Shown one piece after another: positions 54,156 to 61,636 of a stretch of 64,000 nt of DNA; the first letter of the stretch is position 1; each line of letters begins with the position of its first letter. Both the position numbers and the translations under genes were made by a program. Source of the stretch: Eubacteriales bacterium (GTDB taxonomy: Bacteria > Bacillota > Clostridia > Oscillospirales > CAG-272); the NCBI GenBank assembly GCA_045128735.1, contig JBGVRT010000017.1, positions 7,998 to 71,997 of the forward strand, given 5' to 3'. Under the pieces are notes generated by a model. That model was given only the letters and a program-made list of their open reading frames with translations. It searched no databases and was not told where the DNA came from.

Positions 54156-56975
54156 TCATCTCTCGTCAAAAAATTTGATAAGCGAATATTTTTGATTATT
54201 CAACTCTGCCATTTGCCCGGTGAGGGCGGTATACTCCTCACCCTTATTACTGTAAATTCCCTTATTTGCGTCTTTGTTTGAGGGGTCAGCCGAGGGGTCA
54301 CCGGGGTCGTTATCCCAATATTTGAACCAGTCAAATCCCAGACAGTTTTTCCACTCCATAAGCCCAAGCGCAAAGTTGTGATAGTACTTGCCACGCTCGG
54401 TCTGATTTCTTACCGTCCAGCCTGCGCCCGACTTGTTTATCAAGCGGTTATCAGCCTCCCACGCATCCATTCCCTTTGCGTACCACTCGGTTACGATAAA
54501 GGGCACGTCAGACCACTTATCAAGGTTGCAAAGCAAATCCTTTTCGGGTGTCCAATGACCGTAGTAGTTAAAGGATATAGCATCGCACCAATAGCTTGAC
54601 ACGCGGACGATGCTTTCAACTCTGTAGGCTATGCCCGCAATTCGGCTACCGATAAACATATGGTTTGGAACGTATTTGTCAAGCACTTTTCGGCAAATTT
54701 CGTAATACTTATCGTAGACCATTGCTCTGAACTCATCGCGGAGCTCGTCGGTAACGTCTGCGGTGGAAACGTCTGCCTTCCCGGTCTTGAGGTACATAAA
54801 TGTCCATGCGGTGGCGTAAGAATAGTAGGTTCTGTGGTCGGTAGTGTCAAGAGTAAGCGAATTATCAAGCATTTCCCAACCGCTTGGAAGCTCGTTGTCA
54901 CTCATCCAACCGTAGATATATCGGGAATTTTCATATCCCGCAGTCTGCACCCTTACTCTCTCGTCGGCAAAGGTCTCAAATTCGGGGTCAAAGGTCGGGA
55001 ACACGCCCCAGAGGAAGTCTGTTCCCTCTCCCGAATGTGCGTTAAGTCCCTTGGTGGAGGCATAGCCCGCAAGAATAGAGAGAATCTTGGTCTGTGCCAA
55101 AGGCTCGTCTACCTTTATAAGGCTTTCAATATCTGACCAACCGCCGCAGGAGTTGTAGCCAAGCTCACGCATTTTCTCAGTTGCCGACACAGCCCAGGTT
55201 GCAACGTCGCCGTATTTGGCAAGTGAAATCTTTTGCTGATTGGGCGAAGAACCGTGCGCTATCTGCACGCAGGCAACGCGGTAAAAGGGATAGCCCAACG
55301 GGTCGATAGTCCACCATCTGCCGTCAACCTTTTTGGCGTAGAAATAGCCCGTAGCCTCACCATACTTCCCGTTGCCCGTGTAGCCTCCGTATTCGTCGTA
55401 AAGGTCAAGGTCGTCAACCGTGCTCTTGTAGCCCTTAAGTGTATCAACAAGTCTTGTATTAAACTGGGAATAAACCGTGTTTGCACCGTTTGTTTTACTT
55501 GGCAGGCAAGCATCAACCACCACCGTGTACTCGCCCTCGTCGGTCTTTATCTCGGTGGCATCAGGATTGCCGCAATTCTTGATAGTTTCCCATCTTTCAA
55601 GCCAGGTCTTGACATCGGTCATAGCCTTTTCCCAAGGATTGACATCGGTGTATGCAAGATAAGTGTTAAACGATGTCTTTCCGCAAACCACGTCCATGAC
55701 CGGCGCAACTCCGCCTGTCTTTTCTGCCGAGTCAAAGCTCATACGCAAAGGACTGTCGGCAGAGCCTTCAAGGCAGAACGCAACTTCGCTATCGCCGCTT
55801 TCAATAGCCCGCTTTACGTAATCGGTAACGTTAAGCCTTACAACACCTACCGCACCTGCTCTGACGGTGGTAATAAGCGTCTCCTTTTTGGGAAGCGTGT
55901 TCATGGTTACCGTCATTTCCTCCCACTCATATGGGTCACAGCCGTAGACGTTTATATCACGCTGTGAATTGGGGCTCTGCGACGAATAACAGTTAAGAGC
56001 GATCTCCGCCTTTGTCAGGTCATCGCCCTCAAGACTTGAAACGTCGAACTTAAGCAAAATAATTCTGTAAAGATTTGTCACTCCCGCACCCGTATGCTTG
56101 AAGTCAAGCATATCCGATGCACCGAAGTTTACACCGACGTCCTTGCCGCCCTGGACAAAGGTATCCTCAAGCACGGGAATACTCTCGTTTTTAACCGTGG
56201 CAAGACCGAGAATAGAGTCGAGTCCGCTCTTTGACTCCTCGGGCTTGGGCACGCTGATAAGACCGTCATACTTGGCGCTGTCGGTCTTGGTGCCGTAATA
56301 AACCGAGAGTCTCGGTCCCTTTTCGCCCGCCTCGCTTGAGGCGAAATTCATATGCAGACCTGCTTCGGGAGTCTCGTCGCAAATTACAAATGCGACCTCG
56401 GTCATTCCCGCCGCAAGTGCCTGCCTGATATAGTCGGTTACGGGATAGGAGCGCGTTATTTTTTCATTTGTTACGTCGGGAAGCGACGTGATTTTCGAAA
56501 AGAGCACGGGCTGAGTGGCAAAGGTCAGCTTATCGGCATCCCAGGAAGAATCACATCCGTATATGGCGACAGTGGCGTATTTGGGGTCGCCCGAACCGTA
56601 CTGTCTAAGTGCCATAGTAAGGTCTATTTCTACAGACGTAAAATCATTGTCTCCCACAAGACTTGAAATATCAAATTTGAGATATCCGTTTCTTTGAAGC
56701 TTGTTGCTCGCATTTTTTACCTCAATTTTTGCGGACGTGCTGAAATTATCATTGGGAAATCCCGCCTGAACAAAAGTGTCTCCGAACACAGGGATAGTGT
56801 GGTCAAAACGCTCCACTGGCGCGAGGGGCTCGGTTTCAGGCGCATCGGTAACAGTAGGCTCGTCGGTTACAACGGGCTCGTCAGTTATGTCATCGCCCGC
56901 CGTTGTGTCTGCGGGCGCTCCGCAAGCGGTGAGCAACGCAAGTACTGCCAACAAAAGAGCTATTGTTCTTTTCAT
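54156..56975 (-). CDS. lipoprotein with two DNRLRE/CBM-like domains and a C-terminal clan GH-A-like TIM barrel (paralog of 50418-53804)
   Basis: Start at MKRTIALLLAVLALLTACG (lipobox). There are two copies of the D/E-DTFVQ.G....N......... YLKFD.SSL pattern. The C-terminal region has YDEYGGYTGNGKYGEATGYF, SDNELPS, IVTEW and WFKYWDND. Confidence 0.65.
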   Translation of the reverse strand: MKRTIALLLAVLALLTACGAPADTTAGDDITDEPVVTDEPTVTDAPETEPLAPVERFDHTIPVFGDTFVQAGFPNDNFSTSAKIEVKNASNKLQRNGYLKFDISSLVGDNDFTSVEIDLTMALRQYGSGDPKYATVAIYGCDSSWDADKLTFATQPVLFSKITSLPDVTNEKITRSYPVTDYIRQALAAGMTEVAFVICDETPEAGLHMNFASSEAGEKGPRLSVYYGTKTDSAKYDGLISVPKPEESKSGLDSILGLATVKNESIPVLEDTFVQGGKDVGVNFGASDMLDFKHTGAGVTNLYRIILLKFDVSSLEGDDLTKAEIALNCYSSQSPNSQRDINVYGCDPYEWEEMTVTMNTLPKKETLITTVRAGAVGVVRLNVTDYVKRAIESGDSEVAFCLEGSADSPLRMSFDSAEKTGGVAPVMDVVCGKTSFNTYLAYTDVNPWEKAMTDVKTWLERWETIKNCGNPDATEIKTDEGEYTVVVDACLPSKTNGANTVYSQFNTRLVDTLKGYKSTVDDLDLYDEYGGYTGNGKYGEATGYFYAKKVDGRWWTIDPLGYPFYRVACVQIAHGSSPNQQKISLAKYGDVATWAVSATEKMRELGYNSCGGWSDIESLIKVDEPLAQTKILSILAGYASTKGLNAHSGEGTDFLWGVFPTFDPEFETFADERVRVQTAGYENSRYIYGWMSDNELPSGWEMLDNSLTLDTTDHRTYYSYATAWTFMYLKTGKADVSTADVTDELRDEFRAMVYDKYYEICRKVLDKYVPNHMFIGSRIAGIAYRVESIVRVSSYWCDAISFNYYGHWTPEKDLLCNLDKWSDVPFIVTEWYAKGMDAWEADNRLINKSGAGWTVRNQTERGKYYHNFALGLMEWKNCLGFDWFKYWDNDPGDPSADPSNKDANKGIYSNKGEEYTALTGQMAELNNQKYSLIKFFDER

Positions 56976-57150
56976 AAAATTCCCTTTCCTTCCGCATTTT
57001 TTGTTGTTTTTAGGTTCTGTATATTCGATTGTATCACATTTGCCTTCGGCTGTCAATGTGAAAAGCGCATATAAAATTGTGTTTTTTGTACTTTCACAGA
57101 AAACTGTATTATAGGTCACCTCTAAAAAATCACGCAAGCCCCTCGGCTTC

Positions 57151-57293: not shown

Positions 57294-57451
57294 TACCATA
57301 GCAATAAGAAGCGGAGGCCCTTTGTGCCTCCGCGTCTTATTGGTACGAGTGTTCATAACGAAACTACTCAAAATACTGTGCTTTACGGCATTCAAAACAT
57401 ATTCTAATCGTGCCTTGCCTATATAAAAGAGATAATGAAAGGAATATGATT

Positions 57452-57823
57452 ATGGAAAAGTACATCACTAAAAACGGCATCAAATACGAGCTTCGCGGCG
57501 AACAATACTATCCGATGCTTGAAATCTCCGAGAAAACTAACTACGAAATCGGCAAACACGGATGCCTACATCTTGACTTCATCAAGAAGCACCGTAGAGG
57601 CACGTATACCACTTTACTGACCGAAGGACGATTGAACGAACACCTACACAATATCGACGAGCAGGCACACGAACAGATCGACTTGCATATCGCACAGATG
57701 GCAAAGCGAATGGGTGTAACAGAAACCCTCAAAGCTTCTGATCCAATGCGTTGGGTACAGATGATGAATAGCATCAAGGTGAGCGCAGAAGAAATCGTTT
57801 TGCGGGAGGTGATCTACGTATGA
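57452..57823 (+). CDS. TnpV-like transposon-associated protein
   Basis: MEKYITKNGIKYELRGEQYYP...GKHG..HLDFIKKHRRGTYTTLLTEGRLNEHL resembles TnpV of clostridial mobilisable transposons, recalled from memory. The start could instead be 57446. Confidence 0.55.
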   Translation: MEKYITKNGIKYELRGEQYYPMLEISEKTNYEIGKHGCLHLDFIKKHRRGTYTTLLTEGRLNEHLHNIDEQAHEQIDLHIAQMAKRMGVTETLKASDPMRWVQMMNSIKVSAEEIVLREVIYV

Positions 57824-58101
57824 GGTCAATCCTACAAGAACTATGGCACGGAAACATATGCCCTCAAACCGATAGTCGTAGCAACTCTCCCGAAATGAAG
57901 CAGCTTATGGAATATATGGCGCGACATCACGATGACCTACTCAAAACAATGACCGACGAACAAAAGGAAATCTTTGAGAAGTTCGACGATTGTTGGAGCG
58001 AATACGCGAGCTGTGCCGAGGAAGCCATCTTTACATACGCTTTCAAATTAGGCGCACAACTGATGCTTGAAACGCAGTTACAACTCAACAAAGAGGGGTA
58101 A
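57820..58101 (+). CDS. small conserved hypothetical protein of clostridial mobile elements
   Basis: 93 aa, ATGA overlap with the upstream gene, LWHGNICPQ N-terminus. Confidence 0.5.
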   Translation: MRSILQELWHGNICPQTDSRSNSPEMKQLMEYMARHHDDLLKTMTDEQKEIFEKFDDCWSEYASCAEEAIFTYAFKLGAQLMLETQLQLNKEG

Positions 58102-58106
58102 CTGCA

Positions 58107-58460
58107 ATGCAAAAATCAACTTTTCTTATATCAGTTGGTCGGCGTATTGCGAAAGCTCGCAGGGATAGAGGATATAGCCAAGCGGTGTTAGCTGAAAAAG
58201 CCAATATTTCAATCAGTCATTTAAGCAATATCGAACGTGGGTGTAAAAGCTTAAGCGCAGAAGTGTTGCTAAAAATTGCCGAAGCTTTGCAAGTATCCGC
58301 GGATATCATATTGTTCACCGATATTCCGGGAGTGCATAAAGAAGTGGGACGAGAAATAGGCATCAACCTCAATAATTGTACTGTAAGGGAGAAAGAATTT
58401 ATTCTAAAACTCATCAAGAATATAGGTGCATTTATTACTGAGATCAAGACGGAATTTTAA
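58107..58460 (+). CDS. XRE-family helix-turn-helix transcriptional regulator
   Basis: HTH_3 pattern RRDRGYSQAVLAEKANISISHLSNIERG. Confidence 0.85.
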   Translation: MQKSTFLISVGRRIAKARRDRGYSQAVLAEKANISISHLSNIERGCKSLSAEVLLKIAEALQVSADIILFTDIPGVHKEVGREIGINLNNCTVREKEFILKLIKNIGAFITEIKTEF

Positions 58461-58470
58461 TACCTCAAAG

Positions 58471-58510
58471 GAGATACGAGTCAAGCTTTGATTCGTATCT
58501 CTGTTTTTTT
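58471..58510 (+). terminator. intrinsic terminator after the XRE gene
   Basis: gagatacga-N13-tcgtatctc followed by TGTTTTTTT. Confidence 0.8.
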
Positions 58511-58520
58511 GTAGTTAACA

Positions 58521-58553
58521 TAATCCATAGGCTATATTATAGTCTACGGATTA
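58521..58553. promoter_or_regulatory. 33-bp imperfect palindrome (candidate operator) upstream of the recombinase gene
   Basis: In taatccataggctatattatagtctacggatta, 14 of 16 positions are symmetric. It overlaps a possible TTAACA-17-TATAGT promoter. Confidence 0.4.
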
Positions 58554-58649
58554 TTTTCATCTTGGCTGATATTTGTTACAATAATAGCAACCATAAATAT
58601 ATTCATCTGTTCGTGATAAAATATTAGATAGCAAGGAGGATGATATACT

Positions 58650-59489
58650 ATGAGAAAAATAACAACTGAAATAATGAAATCATTCAATGACTATCTGATT
58701 AACGAGGAAAAAGCGGCAGCAACCGTCAACAAGTATCTTCACGACGTAGGTGAGTTTCAAATTTGGCTTGGCGATCAAGAACTATGCAAAACGGTGGTTC
58801 TTGCTTATAAGTCATACCTTTGTGAGCGTTACGCCCCTGCCAGTGTGAATGCTGCGCTCTCATCGCTCAATAGCTTTTTCAATTTTGTGGAATGGTATGA
58901 CTTGAGGGTAAAGAATCTCAAAATTCAAAAGCAGATCTTTGCATCCACTGACAAGGAGTTGATAAAGGCTGAATATGACCGCCTTTTGCAAGCTGCGAAG
59001 CAGAAGAAAAACGAGCGTCTTTATCTCTTGATGCAGACAATCTGCTCCACGGGTATTCGTGTGTCCGAGGTACGCTATGTTACCGTAGAGGCAGTATCGC
59101 GCGGCGTTGCGGAGATCAACTGCAAGGGCAAGCGCAGACAGGTATTCTTGCCCAAGCAGCTTTGTCAAATTTTGAAGCAGTATATCAAAGAGCAGAAAAT
59201 AAAAAGCGGAGCCGTGTTCATAACGAAAAATGGCAATCCGCTCGATAGATCAAATATTTGGAGTGATATGAAGAAGCTATGTAAGGCGGCGAACGTGTCG
59301 GAGAAGAAGGTCTTTCCGCACAACCTCCGTCATCTTTTTGCACGCACTTATTACAGTTTGCAAAAGGACATTGTGCGCTTGGCTGACATCCTCGGACACA
59401 GTAGCGTGAACACGACGAGAATTTACACGATGGAAACAGGCGAGATACACCGCAGACAGATTCAAAAATTAGGGCTTTTGCGATGCTAA
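58650..59489 (+). CDS. tyrosine-type site-specific recombinase (XerC/D-size, 279 aa)
   Basis: SAM-like N-domain and catalytic R (TGIRVSE), H-x-x-R (HNLRHLF), H (GHSSV) and Y (RIYT). AGGAGG SD. Confidence 0.9.
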   Translation: MRKITTEIMKSFNDYLINEEKAAATVNKYLHDVGEFQIWLGDQELCKTVVLAYKSYLCERYAPASVNAALSSLNSFFNFVEWYDLRVKNLKIQKQIFASTDKELIKAEYDRLLQAAKQKKNERLYLLMQTICSTGIRVSEVRYVTVEAVSRGVAEINCKGKRRQVFLPKQLCQILKQYIKEQKIKSGAVFITKNGNPLDRSNIWSDMKKLCKAANVSEKKVFPHNLRHLFARTYYSLQKDIVRLADILGHSSVNTTRIYTMETGEIHRRQIQKLGLLRC

Positions 59490-59506
59490 AACGAACAAAA
59501 AGAAAG

Positions 59507-59532
59507 CACCACATAATTCTTATTATGTGGTG
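59507..59532. repeat. left lox/dif-like recombination-site candidate (IR-L)
   Basis: caccacataattcttattatgtggtg has 10-11-bp palindromic arms around an asymmetric centre ttctta. It is the exact reverse complement of 59727-59752. Confidence 0.75.
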
Positions 59533-59556
59533 GATTTTTGGTTATTACATAAAAAC

Positions 59557-59612
59557 AAGGCGTCCACAAAAGAACGCCTTTTAGACCAATGAAAAAACTC
59601 ATTTCATTGGTC
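59557..59612. terminator. two hairpin terminators inside the IR-bounded segment
   Basis: aaggcgt-N10-acgcctt has T-runs on both strands. gaccaatgaaa-N7-tttcattggtc is followed by ACTTTTG. Confidence 0.6.
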
Positions 59613-59664
59613 ACTTTTGCTATGCCTAATTTTGTAAATTTTCATCGCCTTAATGATGAAAATA

Positions 59665-59693
59665 CTATGCATAATTGACATATGGTTTTATTT
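59665..59693 (+). promoter_or_regulatory. near-consensus sigma-A promoter inside the IR-bounded segment, facing the vWA operon
   Basis: TTGACA (59665-59670), 17 nt spacer, TGaTATAAT (59685-59693). Confidence 0.8.
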
Positions 59694-59726
59694 ATGATAT
59701 AATTTAATGTGGTAAGTTTTATCTTA

Positions 59727-59752
59727 CACCACATAATAAGAATTATGTGGTG
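59727..59752. repeat. right lox/dif-like recombination-site candidate (IR-R)
   Basis: caccacataataagaattatgtggtg has the same arms as IR-L, with centre taagaa = the reverse complement of ttctta. Confidence 0.75.
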
Positions 59753-59784
59753 TGAATACATCAACAAAAAAGGAGATAACAGTG

Positions 59785-60495
59785 ATGTCGCAAATGGATT
59801 TCAACAACAATTTCTTCAACGATGATATTCCCCCTATCGTAAATGCCAGTGAGCCTCACATGGCTTGTTTGTTTTTGCTCGACACATCCGGCTCAATGGG
59901 CTTTAAAGCAACCGATGGTGTTGTTCCAATTGATGCACTAAACGATGCGATGAACAGATTTAAGGCGCAGGTGTGCCAAGACGACAAAACATCCGATATC
60001 TTGGATGTTGCTATCGTAGAGTTCAACAACAGCATTAACGTTATTCAAGACTTCTCGCCCGTTGAATATATGCAGCAGGTAAATCTTGCCGCACGCGGAG
60101 GTACGTATATGGCTCCCGCCATCGAGAAGGCAATTGAAATGGTTGATGAGCGCTCTCGTTTCTACAGAAGAATGGGAACAGAACCCTACAAGCCCTGGAT
60201 CGTTATGATTAGTGACGGCGCACCGTTGGATAATATCAGTGATGTTTCAGCAAAGCTCACTTTGCTTTCTCAGTCGAATAAGCTTGCATTTTGGTCTTTG
60301 AGCCTTCCCGGTGCTGATAATAAGGTTTTGCACGAATTGTCCGGTGCAAGAGTTTTGAATCTTATCGAATATAATTTTGCAGGCTTCTTTGATTGGGTAA
60401 ATAAGAGTATGAGAGCAGTATCCGAGAGTTCTCCTGGAGAAAAGGTTATGCTTCCTCCCGCAAATGAAGCAATTACTCTCGACCAGTTAGGATAA
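59785..60495 (+). CDS. von Willebrand factor A (vWA) domain protein, TerY-like
   Basis: Start at MSQMDF with AGGAG SD 9 nt upstream. MIDAS motif LFLLDTSGSMG, later T and D residues (GGTYMAPA, MISDG). Confidence 0.85.
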   Translation: MSQMDFNNNFFNDDIPPIVNASEPHMACLFLLDTSGSMGFKATDGVVPIDALNDAMNRFKAQVCQDDKTSDILDVAIVEFNNSINVIQDFSPVEYMQQVNLAARGGTYMAPAIEKAIEMVDERSRFYRRMGTEPYKPWIVMISDGAPLDNISDVSAKLTLLSQSNKLAFWSLSLPGADNKVLHELSGARVLNLIEYNFAGFFDWVNKSMRAVSESSPGEKVMLPPANEAITLDQLG

Positions 60496-60502
60496 TAGAA
60501 CC

Positions 60503-61636
60503 ATGATGTATTCATACGGAACAACACAGCAAGGTCCATATCACGTTCAAAAGAATATTGTCTGTCAAGATTTTCATTACATAAGAAAGGTATCCGAGGA
60601 TTGCGTGATTGCCGCCGTTGCCGATGGTTTGGGAAGTGAATCTCATTCCGACGTGGCTTCGAAAATTGCGGCAACCGAATCCGTTGAATATTGCGTTGCC
60701 AATCTTTCGCCTGAATTGACCGAAGAAAATGTTTTGCAAGTGATTTCGGATTCCTTTATGCACGCATTGCAAAAGATTACGGACGAAGTTGCAAAAGAAA
60801 ATGGCGATATCAATCAATATGATACCACTTTGTGTCTTGCTATTTATAAAGGAAGCACTGTATATTTTGGTCAATCGGGTGACAGCGGCGCTATCATTTT
60901 GTGTAAAGACGGACATTACGAGGGCATAACCAAACAGCAACGCGACGAAAACGGTTGCGTTTTTCCGCTTGCTTTTGGCAAAGAAAAATGGGAGTTTGGA
61001 TCAAAATCCGATGTGGCGAGTTTATTGCTTGCGACCGACGGAATGCTTGAAATTTTCTTTCCCGTACTCTTGCACTCGGAAAAAGTAAATATTTACGTTG
61101 CATTGGCTCAATTCTTTATGGATAATCTCTCCTTAAAGTTTGACGAAACCGGAGAGCAAGCCGTTGGGGAGAAAATGACCGCTTTTGTTCAAAATATCCC
61201 CGAAAAGCAGGTCAATGATGACAAAACGGTACTTGTTATTGTAAACGGTTCGATCAAACCAGAGCGTTTGGAGGATTCCTATTATCAAGTTCCAAATTGG
61301 TTAGAGCTTCAAAAGAAACGCCAAGAGGAATTTAATCGCCTTGCATATCCACATTTGTATGCGAAAGAAAAGGTAGAGGAAGCTAAAACAACTGAAACTG
61401 CTACATCTGAAGTAACCGAACAATCAGACGAAGCAAACAACACTTCTGAGGAAATCGCAAAATCCGAAGAAGCCAAAAACGAGAAAAAGGATGACGGTGT
61501 GGATACAGTCACTTCTTCCGATACCGAAACAATCGAAAAAAAGGTAGAGGAGAAAAAAGAACCCTCGGGAGAAAAATCACCAAAGATCCTTCAGCAGATC
61601 ACCTCTATTTTCAAACCTAAAGCAAAGAAGGAATAA
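60503..61636 (+). CDS. PP2C-family Ser/Thr protein phosphatase with acidic low-complexity C-terminal tail
   Basis: QD.... ... AVADGLGS and LLLATDGM motifs. The last ~110 aa are E/K/T/S-rich. Confidence 0.8.
   Translation: MMYSYGTTQQGPYHVQKNIVCQDFHYIRKVSEDCVIAAVADGLGSESHSDVASKIAATESVEYCVANLSPELTEENVLQVISDSFMHALQKITDEVAKENGDINQYDTTLCLAIYKGSTVYFGQSGDSGAIILCKDGHYEGITKQQRDENGCVFPLAFGKEKWEFGSKSDVASLLLATDGMLEIFFPVLLHSEKVNIYVALAQFFMDNLSLKFDETGEQAVGEKMTAFVQNIPEKQVNDDKTVLVIVNGSIKPERLEDSYYQVPNWLELQKKRQEEFNRLAYPHLYAKEKVEEAKTTETATSEVTEQSDEANNTSEEIAKSEEAKNEKKDDGVDTVTSSDTETIEKKVEEKKEPSGEKSPKILQQITSIFKPKAKKE

Follow-up and report, generated by a model that had tools for sequence, protein, structure and literature searches.

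A 64,000-nucleotide (nt) stretch of DNA from a Eubacteriales bacterium (contig JBGVRT010000017.1; hereafter the window) contains a tyrosine recombinase gene, followed by two opposed 26-nt sites and then by an operon for a vWA protein, a PP2C phosphatase and a kinase-like protein. Can the short segment between the sites be turned over by recombination, and so switch the operon on and off, or do the sites act as hairpins, operators or the recombination sites of a mobile element? The first-pass annotation of this DNA had proposed an invertible promoter switch. Our analysis supports that overall proposal, mainly through comparative evidence. With a probability of about 0.87, we consider the locus to be an invertible promoter switch (inverton) of a large family in gut Clostridia, with a dedicated Xer-like tyrosine recombinase encoded immediately upstream.

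Opposed dif-like sites beside a recombinase gene

The two sites (Table 1) are 100% reverse-complementary over their 26 nt and lie 194 nt apart, an inverted-repeat pair bounding a short segment, as expected of an inverton. The first-pass annotation had given their positions and sequences correctly, and its description of 10-11-bp palindromic arms around an asymmetric centre was also accurate. Each site consists of 11-bp arms and a 4-nt centre or, equivalently, of 10-bp arms and a 6-bp centre, TTCTTA in site 1 and TAAGAA in site 2. Because the copies are identical except for the centre (TCTT in site 1, AAGA in site 2), the distinction between inverted and direct sites depends on 4 nt. The generic pattern CACCACATAATNNNNATTATGTGGTG occurs at just these two positions in the window when up to three mismatches are allowed, and gave 0 matches in 100 dinucleotide-preserving shuffles of the window, in agreement with the earlier argument that the pair is not due to chance.

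Pfam bore out the tyrosine recombinase placed just left of site 1 and outside the segment, with its stop codon ending 17 nt ahead of the site. It is the only recombinase of this kind in the window. The closest solved structures are XerA/XerC-like, XerD and XerH, the open reading frame (ORF) is intact, and alignment shows the Arg, His-x-x-Arg, His and Tyr active-site motifs all to be present. The protein does not reach the equivalog cut-offs of the NCBIfam Xer models (XerA, 134 bits against 220; XerD, 127 against 330; XerC, 116 against 335; XerS, 70 against 267), nor does it match the Fim-type 'tyrosine-type DNA invertase' models of NCBIfam (29.3 bits against 221 and 20.6 against 222). Its top NCBIfam match is named 'site-specific tyrosine recombinase/integron integrase'.

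To place the locus in a family we scanned one genome per GTDB species for the generic site, leaving the centre unconstrained. This gave 62 stretches with a site, many from Clostridia (Oscillospiraceae, Lachnospiraceae and others) and further ones from Erysipelotrichaceae and Gastranaerophilales, and nearly every locus proves to have two sites once mismatches are tolerated. The 47 loci with readable sequence, oriented by their recombinase homologues (45-95% identity), all show the same order of recombinase stop codon, a flank of about 10-30 nt, site A, interior and site A'. Homologous loci therefore keep both sites, as the earlier proposal implied they should, and a recombinase homologue accompanies them in 47/47. 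The interiors measure 130-390 bp, with three loci longer. The half-site core ACATAAT is invariant in 184/184 half-sites, giving a family site ACATAAT-N4-ATTATGT whose arms are shared with the core of E. coli dif. The 4-nt centre takes 33 values in 46 loci, is never palindromic, and is reverse-complementary between the two sites of every locus. Because the search left the centre unconstrained, this covariation is no artefact of the pattern.

The interiors share a plan as well. Around 50 carry TTGACA-16/18-TATAAT at two mismatches or fewer, most with a TG, and the -10 element ends a median of 24 nt (range 19-67) before one site; the opposite end of the interior folds into strong hairpins. A co-oriented ORF starts about 10-350 nt past the distal site in nearly all loci, and the products of this cargo range over TetR regulators, ResIII/helicase with HA-domain proteins, collagen-repeat, BspA-LRR, SLH, Wzz, Band_7/zinc-ribbon and vWA proteins. 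More than 8000 homologues of the recombinase were found at E<1e-20.

In the window the promoter matches the consensus at 12/12 positions with an additional TG. It is real as a consensus match and points right as had been claimed, but it lies at 59675-59703 and not at 59665-59693, an offset of 10 nt. Its -10 element ends 23 nt ahead of site 2, and it would read through that repeat into the co-oriented vWA-PP2C-kinase operon, so that the earlier call of a switch that is ON as sequenced also stands (OFF denotes the opposite orientation). Two terminator-like hairpins are indeed present within 59557-59612, as proposed, but they face opposite directions.

An alternative view of such palindromes is that they are operators, bracketing the promoter and bound by a neighbouring XRE-type repressor or another regulator. 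Palindromes are typical of operators and an XRE gene lies two genes upstream. However, it is only in the closest clade that an XRE gene goes with the module, and the sites occur with the recombinase in 47/47 loci. An operator would also have no need of locus-specific, reverse-complementary centres, and would not explain the inversion observed in homologues (see below). As the sites travel with the recombinase and the XRE gene is shared with only a few close relatives, we rejected this explanation, which appears extremely improbable.

Natural inversion in near-identical loci

The interior of the switch in the window aligns over its full length with that of locus L038, which has a 95% identical recombinase, only when flipped; the hairpin GACCAATGAAA...TTTCATTGGTC and the promoter are shared. 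The interiors of L067, L073 and L068 align with it unflipped. A closer comparison comes from two ENA samples, in which L066 (ERZ27316157) and L067 (ERZ27316224) encode the same recombinase (P0001, 97% identical to that of the window) and have the same neighbours. As far as the centre of site 1 the two loci are 100% identical on the plus strand; through the switch the match, 247 nt at 100%, is to the minus strand, and past the switch it returns to the plus strand at 98.9%. When L067 is inverted in silico at the centres, its switch has 0 mismatches to that of L066, and the 7 differences that remain are all in the cargo gene. The inner arms have traded their marker bases, precisely the pattern expected of a crossover in the centre. 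Other copies of the P0001 group are L069 and L071, both OFF, and L068, which is ON.

A second group, P0093, is ON in 8/8 contigs, yet OFF junctions occur in L080, which comes from one of the same samples (JGI sample 3300024268; recombinase 94% identical to that of the window). This contig runs through the recombinase gene, site 1, an ON-oriented interior, the inner arm and the centre, and then continues into the reverse complement of the outer arm of site 1, TACTACATATT, and the recombinase-side flank, which is the junction of the OFF state. As L080 carries both an ON interior and an OFF-state junction, one sample holds both states. Several contigs from different samples end inside or at site 1 (L077, L086, L088, L089 and L001). 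Misassembly is an unlikely cause of the opposite orientations, because the 26-nt repeats are shorter than assembly k-mers and reads. Comparing orientation in related assemblies and metagenomes, which the first-pass annotation had named as a way to check its proposal, thus revealed both states in homologues with 94-97% identical recombinases; the exact locus of the window was seen only ON.

These inversions also bear on whether the palindromes could be hairpins and nothing else, with site 1 as the recombinase terminator and site 2 as a stem-loop in the 5' untranslated region, or the two halves of a long-range 26-bp RNA helix, with no recombination at all. Site 1 is terminator-like on both strands, reverse-complementary centres would also be expected if the sites paired with each other in RNA, and an in-silico fold pairs them over their full length. 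Against this, it is the sequence of the arms, and not just their pairing, that stays invariant among recombinases as little as 45% identical, as is the case for protein binding sites, and the core of the site is that of dif. Nor would RNA structure account for clean natural inversions with arm exchange in near-identical loci, or for an interior promoter that occurs in both orientations. We consider an explanation by hairpins highly improbable, and return to the invertible switch.

For the window itself, we infer inversion from homology, from the two perfect sites and from the intact recombinase gene. An exact-protein look-up of the recombinase, vWA, PP2C and XRE proteins found just three Logan samples, with short contigs that are ON where readable. 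L064 is 100% identical to the window locus and ON, L065 is ON and starts inside site 1, and L001 ends 4 nt past site 1. The ends of L001 and L065 at site 1 fit an assembly-graph branch or low coverage and were not counted as evidence. The closest relatives with vWA cargo, L090 and L091 (recombinase 98% identical, DNA 80% identical and collinear, centres TTCT/AGAA), are likewise ON. It is possible that the window copy is a locked relic with a constitutive promoter that no longer switches; the three readable copies of the lineage and these two relatives, all ON, would fit such a state. The perfect sites and an intact recombinase ORF with its active-site motifs speak for a functional element, however, and the P0093 group illustrates how a locus that is ON in every contig can still show OFF junctions in L080. 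A locked relic therefore seems unlikely to us.

Several points weigh against an invertible switch at this locus. No inverted copy was present among the readable copies of the exact locus (the window, L064 and L065). Scans of JGI metagenome contigs, for the junction AAGCACCACATAATTCTTATTATGTGGTGTAAG expected after inversion and for the site with a TCTT centre, also gave 0 matches each, a result that says nothing about inversion because the lineage of the window is absent from the JGI collection. In the GTDB loci the promoter faces the recombinase in 31 and the cargo in 4 (the copy in the window faces the cargo), and since these assemblies are strongly biased to one orientation, switching may be rare or conditional. 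The bias could reflect an OFF state by default, selection acting in the gut, or control of the recombinase that depends on orientation. In contrast to this bias, the P0093 group and all copies of the window lineage face the cargo. Finally, the promoter and terminator calls are consensus matches, from which our statements on transcription follow, and it is the strict co-occurrence with the sites that suggests the neighbouring recombinase to be the invertase.

Proposed switch and its gene context

Tyrosine recombinases bind as two monomers to the arms of each core site and exchange strands at the edges of a 6-8-bp centre. The centres must match, their asymmetry fixes the alignment of the sites, and opposed sites lead to inversion. 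We propose that the recombinase would bind the four conserved half-sites, (C/T)AC(C)ACATAAT, for which a single recombinase would suffice because both arms of each site are identical. Strand exchange within the asymmetric centres of the opposed dif-like sites would then flip the 194-bp segment. The locus-specific centre would set the polarity of the sites, and with it inversion instead of deletion, and probably also limits recombination to the two partner sites.

In the ON state the transcript would start near 59710, about 15 nt inside the segment, and pass site 2, which in this transcript forms a 5' untranslated hairpin that lacks a following U-run, before reaching the AAGGAG ribosome-binding site and ATG start codon of the cargo, allowing the vWA-PP2C-kinase operon to be expressed. 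Read-through from the recombinase gene would be stopped by site 1 with GATTTTT and by the hairpin at 59584-59612. In the OFF state, modelled by in-silico inversion, the promoter would face the recombinase gene and produce a leader of about 17 nt, the site hairpin and then CUUUCUUUUUGUUCGUUUU. In this position the transcript is probably terminated, because the hairpin of site 1 and the conserved A-rich outer flank give a U-run terminator on that strand. The idea that the OFF promoter fires antisense into the 3' end of the recombinase gene thus needs revision, as such a transcript would probably not extend far. Read-through from the recombinase would meet GGCGUUCUUUUGUGGACGCC and UUGUUUUUAUG before site 2, the hairpin at 59557-59580 now being right-facing, and the cargo would be silent.

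The terminator-like character of the sites appears to have a direction. In the consensus scan site 1 is terminator-like on both strands, with the tail CTTTCTTTTT on the minus strand (59532->59507). Across the family the flank on the recombinase side is A-rich, averaging 6.9 A over the 10 nt that precede the proximal site, and that on the cargo side is not rich in T (3.3 in 10 nt). Because the first of these flanks is conserved as A-rich and the second is not T-rich, the palindrome would be terminator-like on one side only.

Table 1. Features of the switch and its surroundings in the window (coordinates in nt)
Feature	Coordinates	Strand	Basis or remark
TnpV	57410-57823	+	Pfam
DUF6809	57820-58101	+	Pfam
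XRE-type helix-turn-helix protein, upstream neighbour of the recombinase	58107-58460	+	Pfam
Terminator-like hairpin after XRE gene	58470-58502	+	Consensus scan
Promoter-like sites ahead of recombinase gene	58515-58543; 58554-58582	+	Consensus scan
Xer-like tyrosine recombinase, 279 aa, presumed invertase, 3' end toward switch	58650-59489	+	Pfam Phage_integrase E=4.7e-30 and SAM-like N-terminal domain
Switch region	59490-59784	.	Sequence and consensus scan
A-rich outer flank AACGAACAAAAAGAAAG	59490-59506	+	Supplies minus-strand U-run next to site 1
Site 1, proximal inverted repeat, CACCACATAATTCTTATTATGTGGTG = CACCACATAAT-TCTT-ATTATGTGGTG	59507-59532	.	dif-like core site
Interior presumed to invert, 194 bp	59533-59726	.	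Presumed crossover within site centres
Terminator-like hairpin, left-facing as sequenced	59557-59580 (59580->59557)	-	Consensus scan
Terminator-like hairpin GACCAATGAAA...TTTCATTGGTC	59584-59612	+	Consensus scan; kept in closest relatives
Promoter TTGACA-17-(TG)ATATAAT	59675-59703	+	Consensus scan, 12/12 and TG before second hexamer
Site 2, distal inverted repeat, CACCACATAATAAGAATTATGTGGTG = CACCACATAAT-AAGA-ATTATGTGGTG	59727-59752	.	dif-like
Ribosome-binding site AAGGAG	59770-59775	+	Read from sequence; cargo start codon ATG at 59785
vWA protein, first cargo gene	59785-60495	+	Pfam
PP2C phosphatase	60503-61636	+	Pfam
Ser/Thr-kinase-like membrane protein, long C-terminal region	61642 to beyond window end (64000)	+	Pfam

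Upstream of the switch, the hairpin after the XRE gene and the promoter-like sites that follow it precede the recombinase gene, which is therefore probably transcribed from its own promoter. TnpV, DUF6809 and XRE are kept only in the closest clade (L038 and relatives of the L066-L091 type) and are absent from the wider family. Because these three genes go only with that clade, the conserved unit is the recombinase together with the switch. In the clade with 94-98% identity (window 57410-58460; L066-L091), TnpV, sometimes DUF6809, and XRE stand ahead of the recombinase. The genes further upstream vary (response regulator, AraC, sigma-70 factor, GNAT or HAD hydrolase), as does the cargo (Band_7/zinc-ribbon, DUF2971 or vWA), an arrangement suggestive of a mobile island. 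In the window, a 993-aa ORF at 54156-57137 (-), on the strand opposite to TnpV and immediately upstream of it, encodes two CBM96 carbohydrate-binding modules (E=3e-52).

The changing surroundings suggest a further explanation, in which the sites are att or cassette sites of a mobile element, with integration and excision of an integron- or island-like kind as the main activity and inversion as a side reaction. Identical or near-identical recombinase and switch units do sit beside differing cargo and upstream genes, TnpV is nearby, a few loci (for example L056, L012 and L036) have a third site in direct orientation, and the best NCBIfam match of the recombinase carries the integron integrase name. 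Att sites would be direct core repeats flanking an element and its integrase, however, whereas the sites in the window are opposed, 220 nt apart and both to the same side of the recombinase gene, with no gene between them. Being inverted and about 200 bp apart, they flank neither the recombinase gene nor the cargo; no site was found past the cargo in 8-kb stretches, the conserved layout of promoter and terminators is that of a switch, and inversion is the only rearrangement observed. With no site beyond the cargo and the wrong site orientation, we rejected an att- or integron-like main function as very unlikely. The module is clearly mobile, and some excision or exchange activity is possible given the third direct sites.

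These third sites, often degenerate and in the same orientation, lie 32-35 nt from one member of the pair (L012:3726/3760, L036:2041/2074, L007:6450/6482, L027:1002/1035, L043:4759/4794 and L052:3636/3669). In L056 (2046/2444/3304) two copies in the same orientation are 860 nt apart and one is opposed. They might allow alternative inversions or deletions, or be remnants. Three Gastranaerophilales metagenome-assembled genomes (MAGs) have one lone site, CACCACATAATGATTATTATGTGGTG, in a shared AT-rich intergenic setting (L009:7588-7613, L010:267-292 and L035:302-327). The examined stretch contains neither a partner site nor a homologue of the recombinase, and the lone site could be a chromosomal dif-type site or a relic. 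Some genomes hold several modules, such as L003 with L008 and L024 with L028. The first two, both from MAG RGIG5376, share the centre TCGC/GCGA, and in Anaerofilum hominis BX8 (L024 and L028) and other genomes the centres differ between modules. Modules with the same centre could in principle recombine together and cause large rearrangements. A scan of viral contigs for the generic site gave 0 matches and so no sign of a phage-borne module.

The cargo operon of the window also occurs in L064 and L065. The kinase-like protein scores 27 bits with the Pfam kinase model, below the gathering threshold of 31.7. Its sequence includes a low-complexity linker rich in Ser and Pro, a predicted transmembrane segment, MKKGIIGAIIAAILFSLLFAFVIW, and then a long C-terminal part, cut off by the end of the window, in which GG(I/L)VG-type motifs recur. 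The domain triad of vWA, PP2C and kinase is present. With PADLOC, the vWA protein gave a weak TerY match (E=6.6e-4, 17 bits), no model matched the PP2C phosphatase, and the kinase matched other defence kinases, mad6 and PD-T4-6, at about 1e-5; these models do not establish membership of TerY-P. We offer, as a tentative proposal that may well be wrong, that the family is a self-contained, horizontally mobile phase-switch cassette derived from Xer/dif, in which the 4-nt centre would be a locus address keeping cassettes of the same genome apart and the site would double as a one-sided terminator silencing the parked promoter. In the window, such a cassette would place a TerY-P-like triad, a candidate for anti-phage or envelope-signalling function, under stochastic on/off control.

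Significance and comparison with known systems

Phase variation is far less mapped in gut Firmicutes than in Bacteroides. The module described here is very abundant and can be recognised in sequence by three features, namely an Xer-like recombinase gene, two ACATAAT-N4-ATTATGT sites with reverse-complementary centres, and a consensus promoter about 24 nt from one site. This rule would allow ON/OFF annotation in genomes and metagenomes, and it points to phase variation of the vWA-PP2C-kinase triad, and of many other accessory genes, in gut Clostridia. The recombinase and its sites form a compact pair, and the variable centre is testable as an orthogonality code for synthetic switches.

Among known switches, fimS of E. 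coli has a comparable layout, with the gene of a tyrosine recombinase adjacent to a short segment whose inversion turns a promoter, and with it a downstream operon, on and off. It has 9-bp repeats around a 314-bp segment, two recombinases (FimB and FimE) and a need for IHF and Lrp. The locus in the window resembles this system in having a recombinase gene next to a short promoter-bearing segment, and differs in its recombinase, which scores 29 bits against a Fim-type cut-off of 221.

The Xer/dif systems (XerC/XerD, XerS/difSL, XerH/difH and XerA) are the nearest in terms of protein and site, the recombinase being most similar to Xer proteins. A dif site has two arms around a 6-bp centre, in E. 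coli GGTGCGCATAATGTATATTATGTTAAAT = GGTGCGCATAA-TGTATA-TTATGTTAAAT (PMC2731167). The site in the window, CACCACATAA-TTCTTA-TTATGTGGTG, shares with it the core CATAAT-N4-ATTATGT, so that the dif-like architecture claimed in the first-pass annotation holds at the sequence level (PMC2731167). In contrast to a single site per replicon, we find two inverted sites beside the recombinase gene and several modules in some genomes, and further differences are the identical arms, the scores far below the Xer equivalog cut-offs, and a proposed role in promoter inversion instead of dimer resolution.

Within the same class, RecV of Clostridioides difficile is a tyrosine recombinase that inverts short promoter or regulatory segments (flgB, cwpV, cmrRST and pdcB; PMC7446863, PMC8844915, PMC9286219). 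A single, distant RecV serves many switches with imperfect repeats of differing sequence, whereas each locus in the family of the window has its own adjacent recombinase and dif-like sites. The Mpi/Tsr-type invertons of Bacteroides are similar in placing phase-variable promoters before surface and accessory genes of gut bacteria (PMC11892184, PMC8748976), and belong to another phylum with other repeat motifs and another promoter type, the promoter in the window being of the sigma-70 TTGACA/TATAAT type.

A literature search for the site sequence found no description of it, nor did a limited search turn up an account of a core resembling dif, a covarying centre, a one-sided terminator or the vWA-PP2C-kinase cargo. 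The closest published match is inverton group 139, reported in 2025 from the hCom2 defined gut community using PhaseFinderDC (PMC11892184). This group contains 33 invertons, 32 of them in Clostridia, from 17 strains, and has a previously unpublished repeat motif. Of all groups it is the most strongly linked to a nearby recombinase group (invertase group 35, annotated by PGAP as 'tyrosine-type recombinase/integrase'), with the recombinase oriented such that the inverton promoter could not drive the gene, and its orientation shifts at the read level over culture passages. Its example from Clostridium sp. D5 (3525576-3525601-3525807-3525832) has 26-nt repeats around an interior of about 205 bp, against 26 nt and 194 nt in the window; Clostridia hosts and an adjacent recombinase with its 3' end toward the inverton are also common to both. 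The dif-like core, centre covariation, terminator layout and vWA-PP2C-kinase cargo are not part of the group's description in the sections of the study considered. Likened to it by architecture and description, and not by repeat sequence, the family of the window is probably group 139. The locus would therefore not represent a new category, being a tyrosine-recombinase inverton probably of an already catalogued Clostridia group, and notable features of the family are its apparently dif-derived sites, a locus-specific centre, a site that may double as a terminator, and its portability across cargo and taxa.

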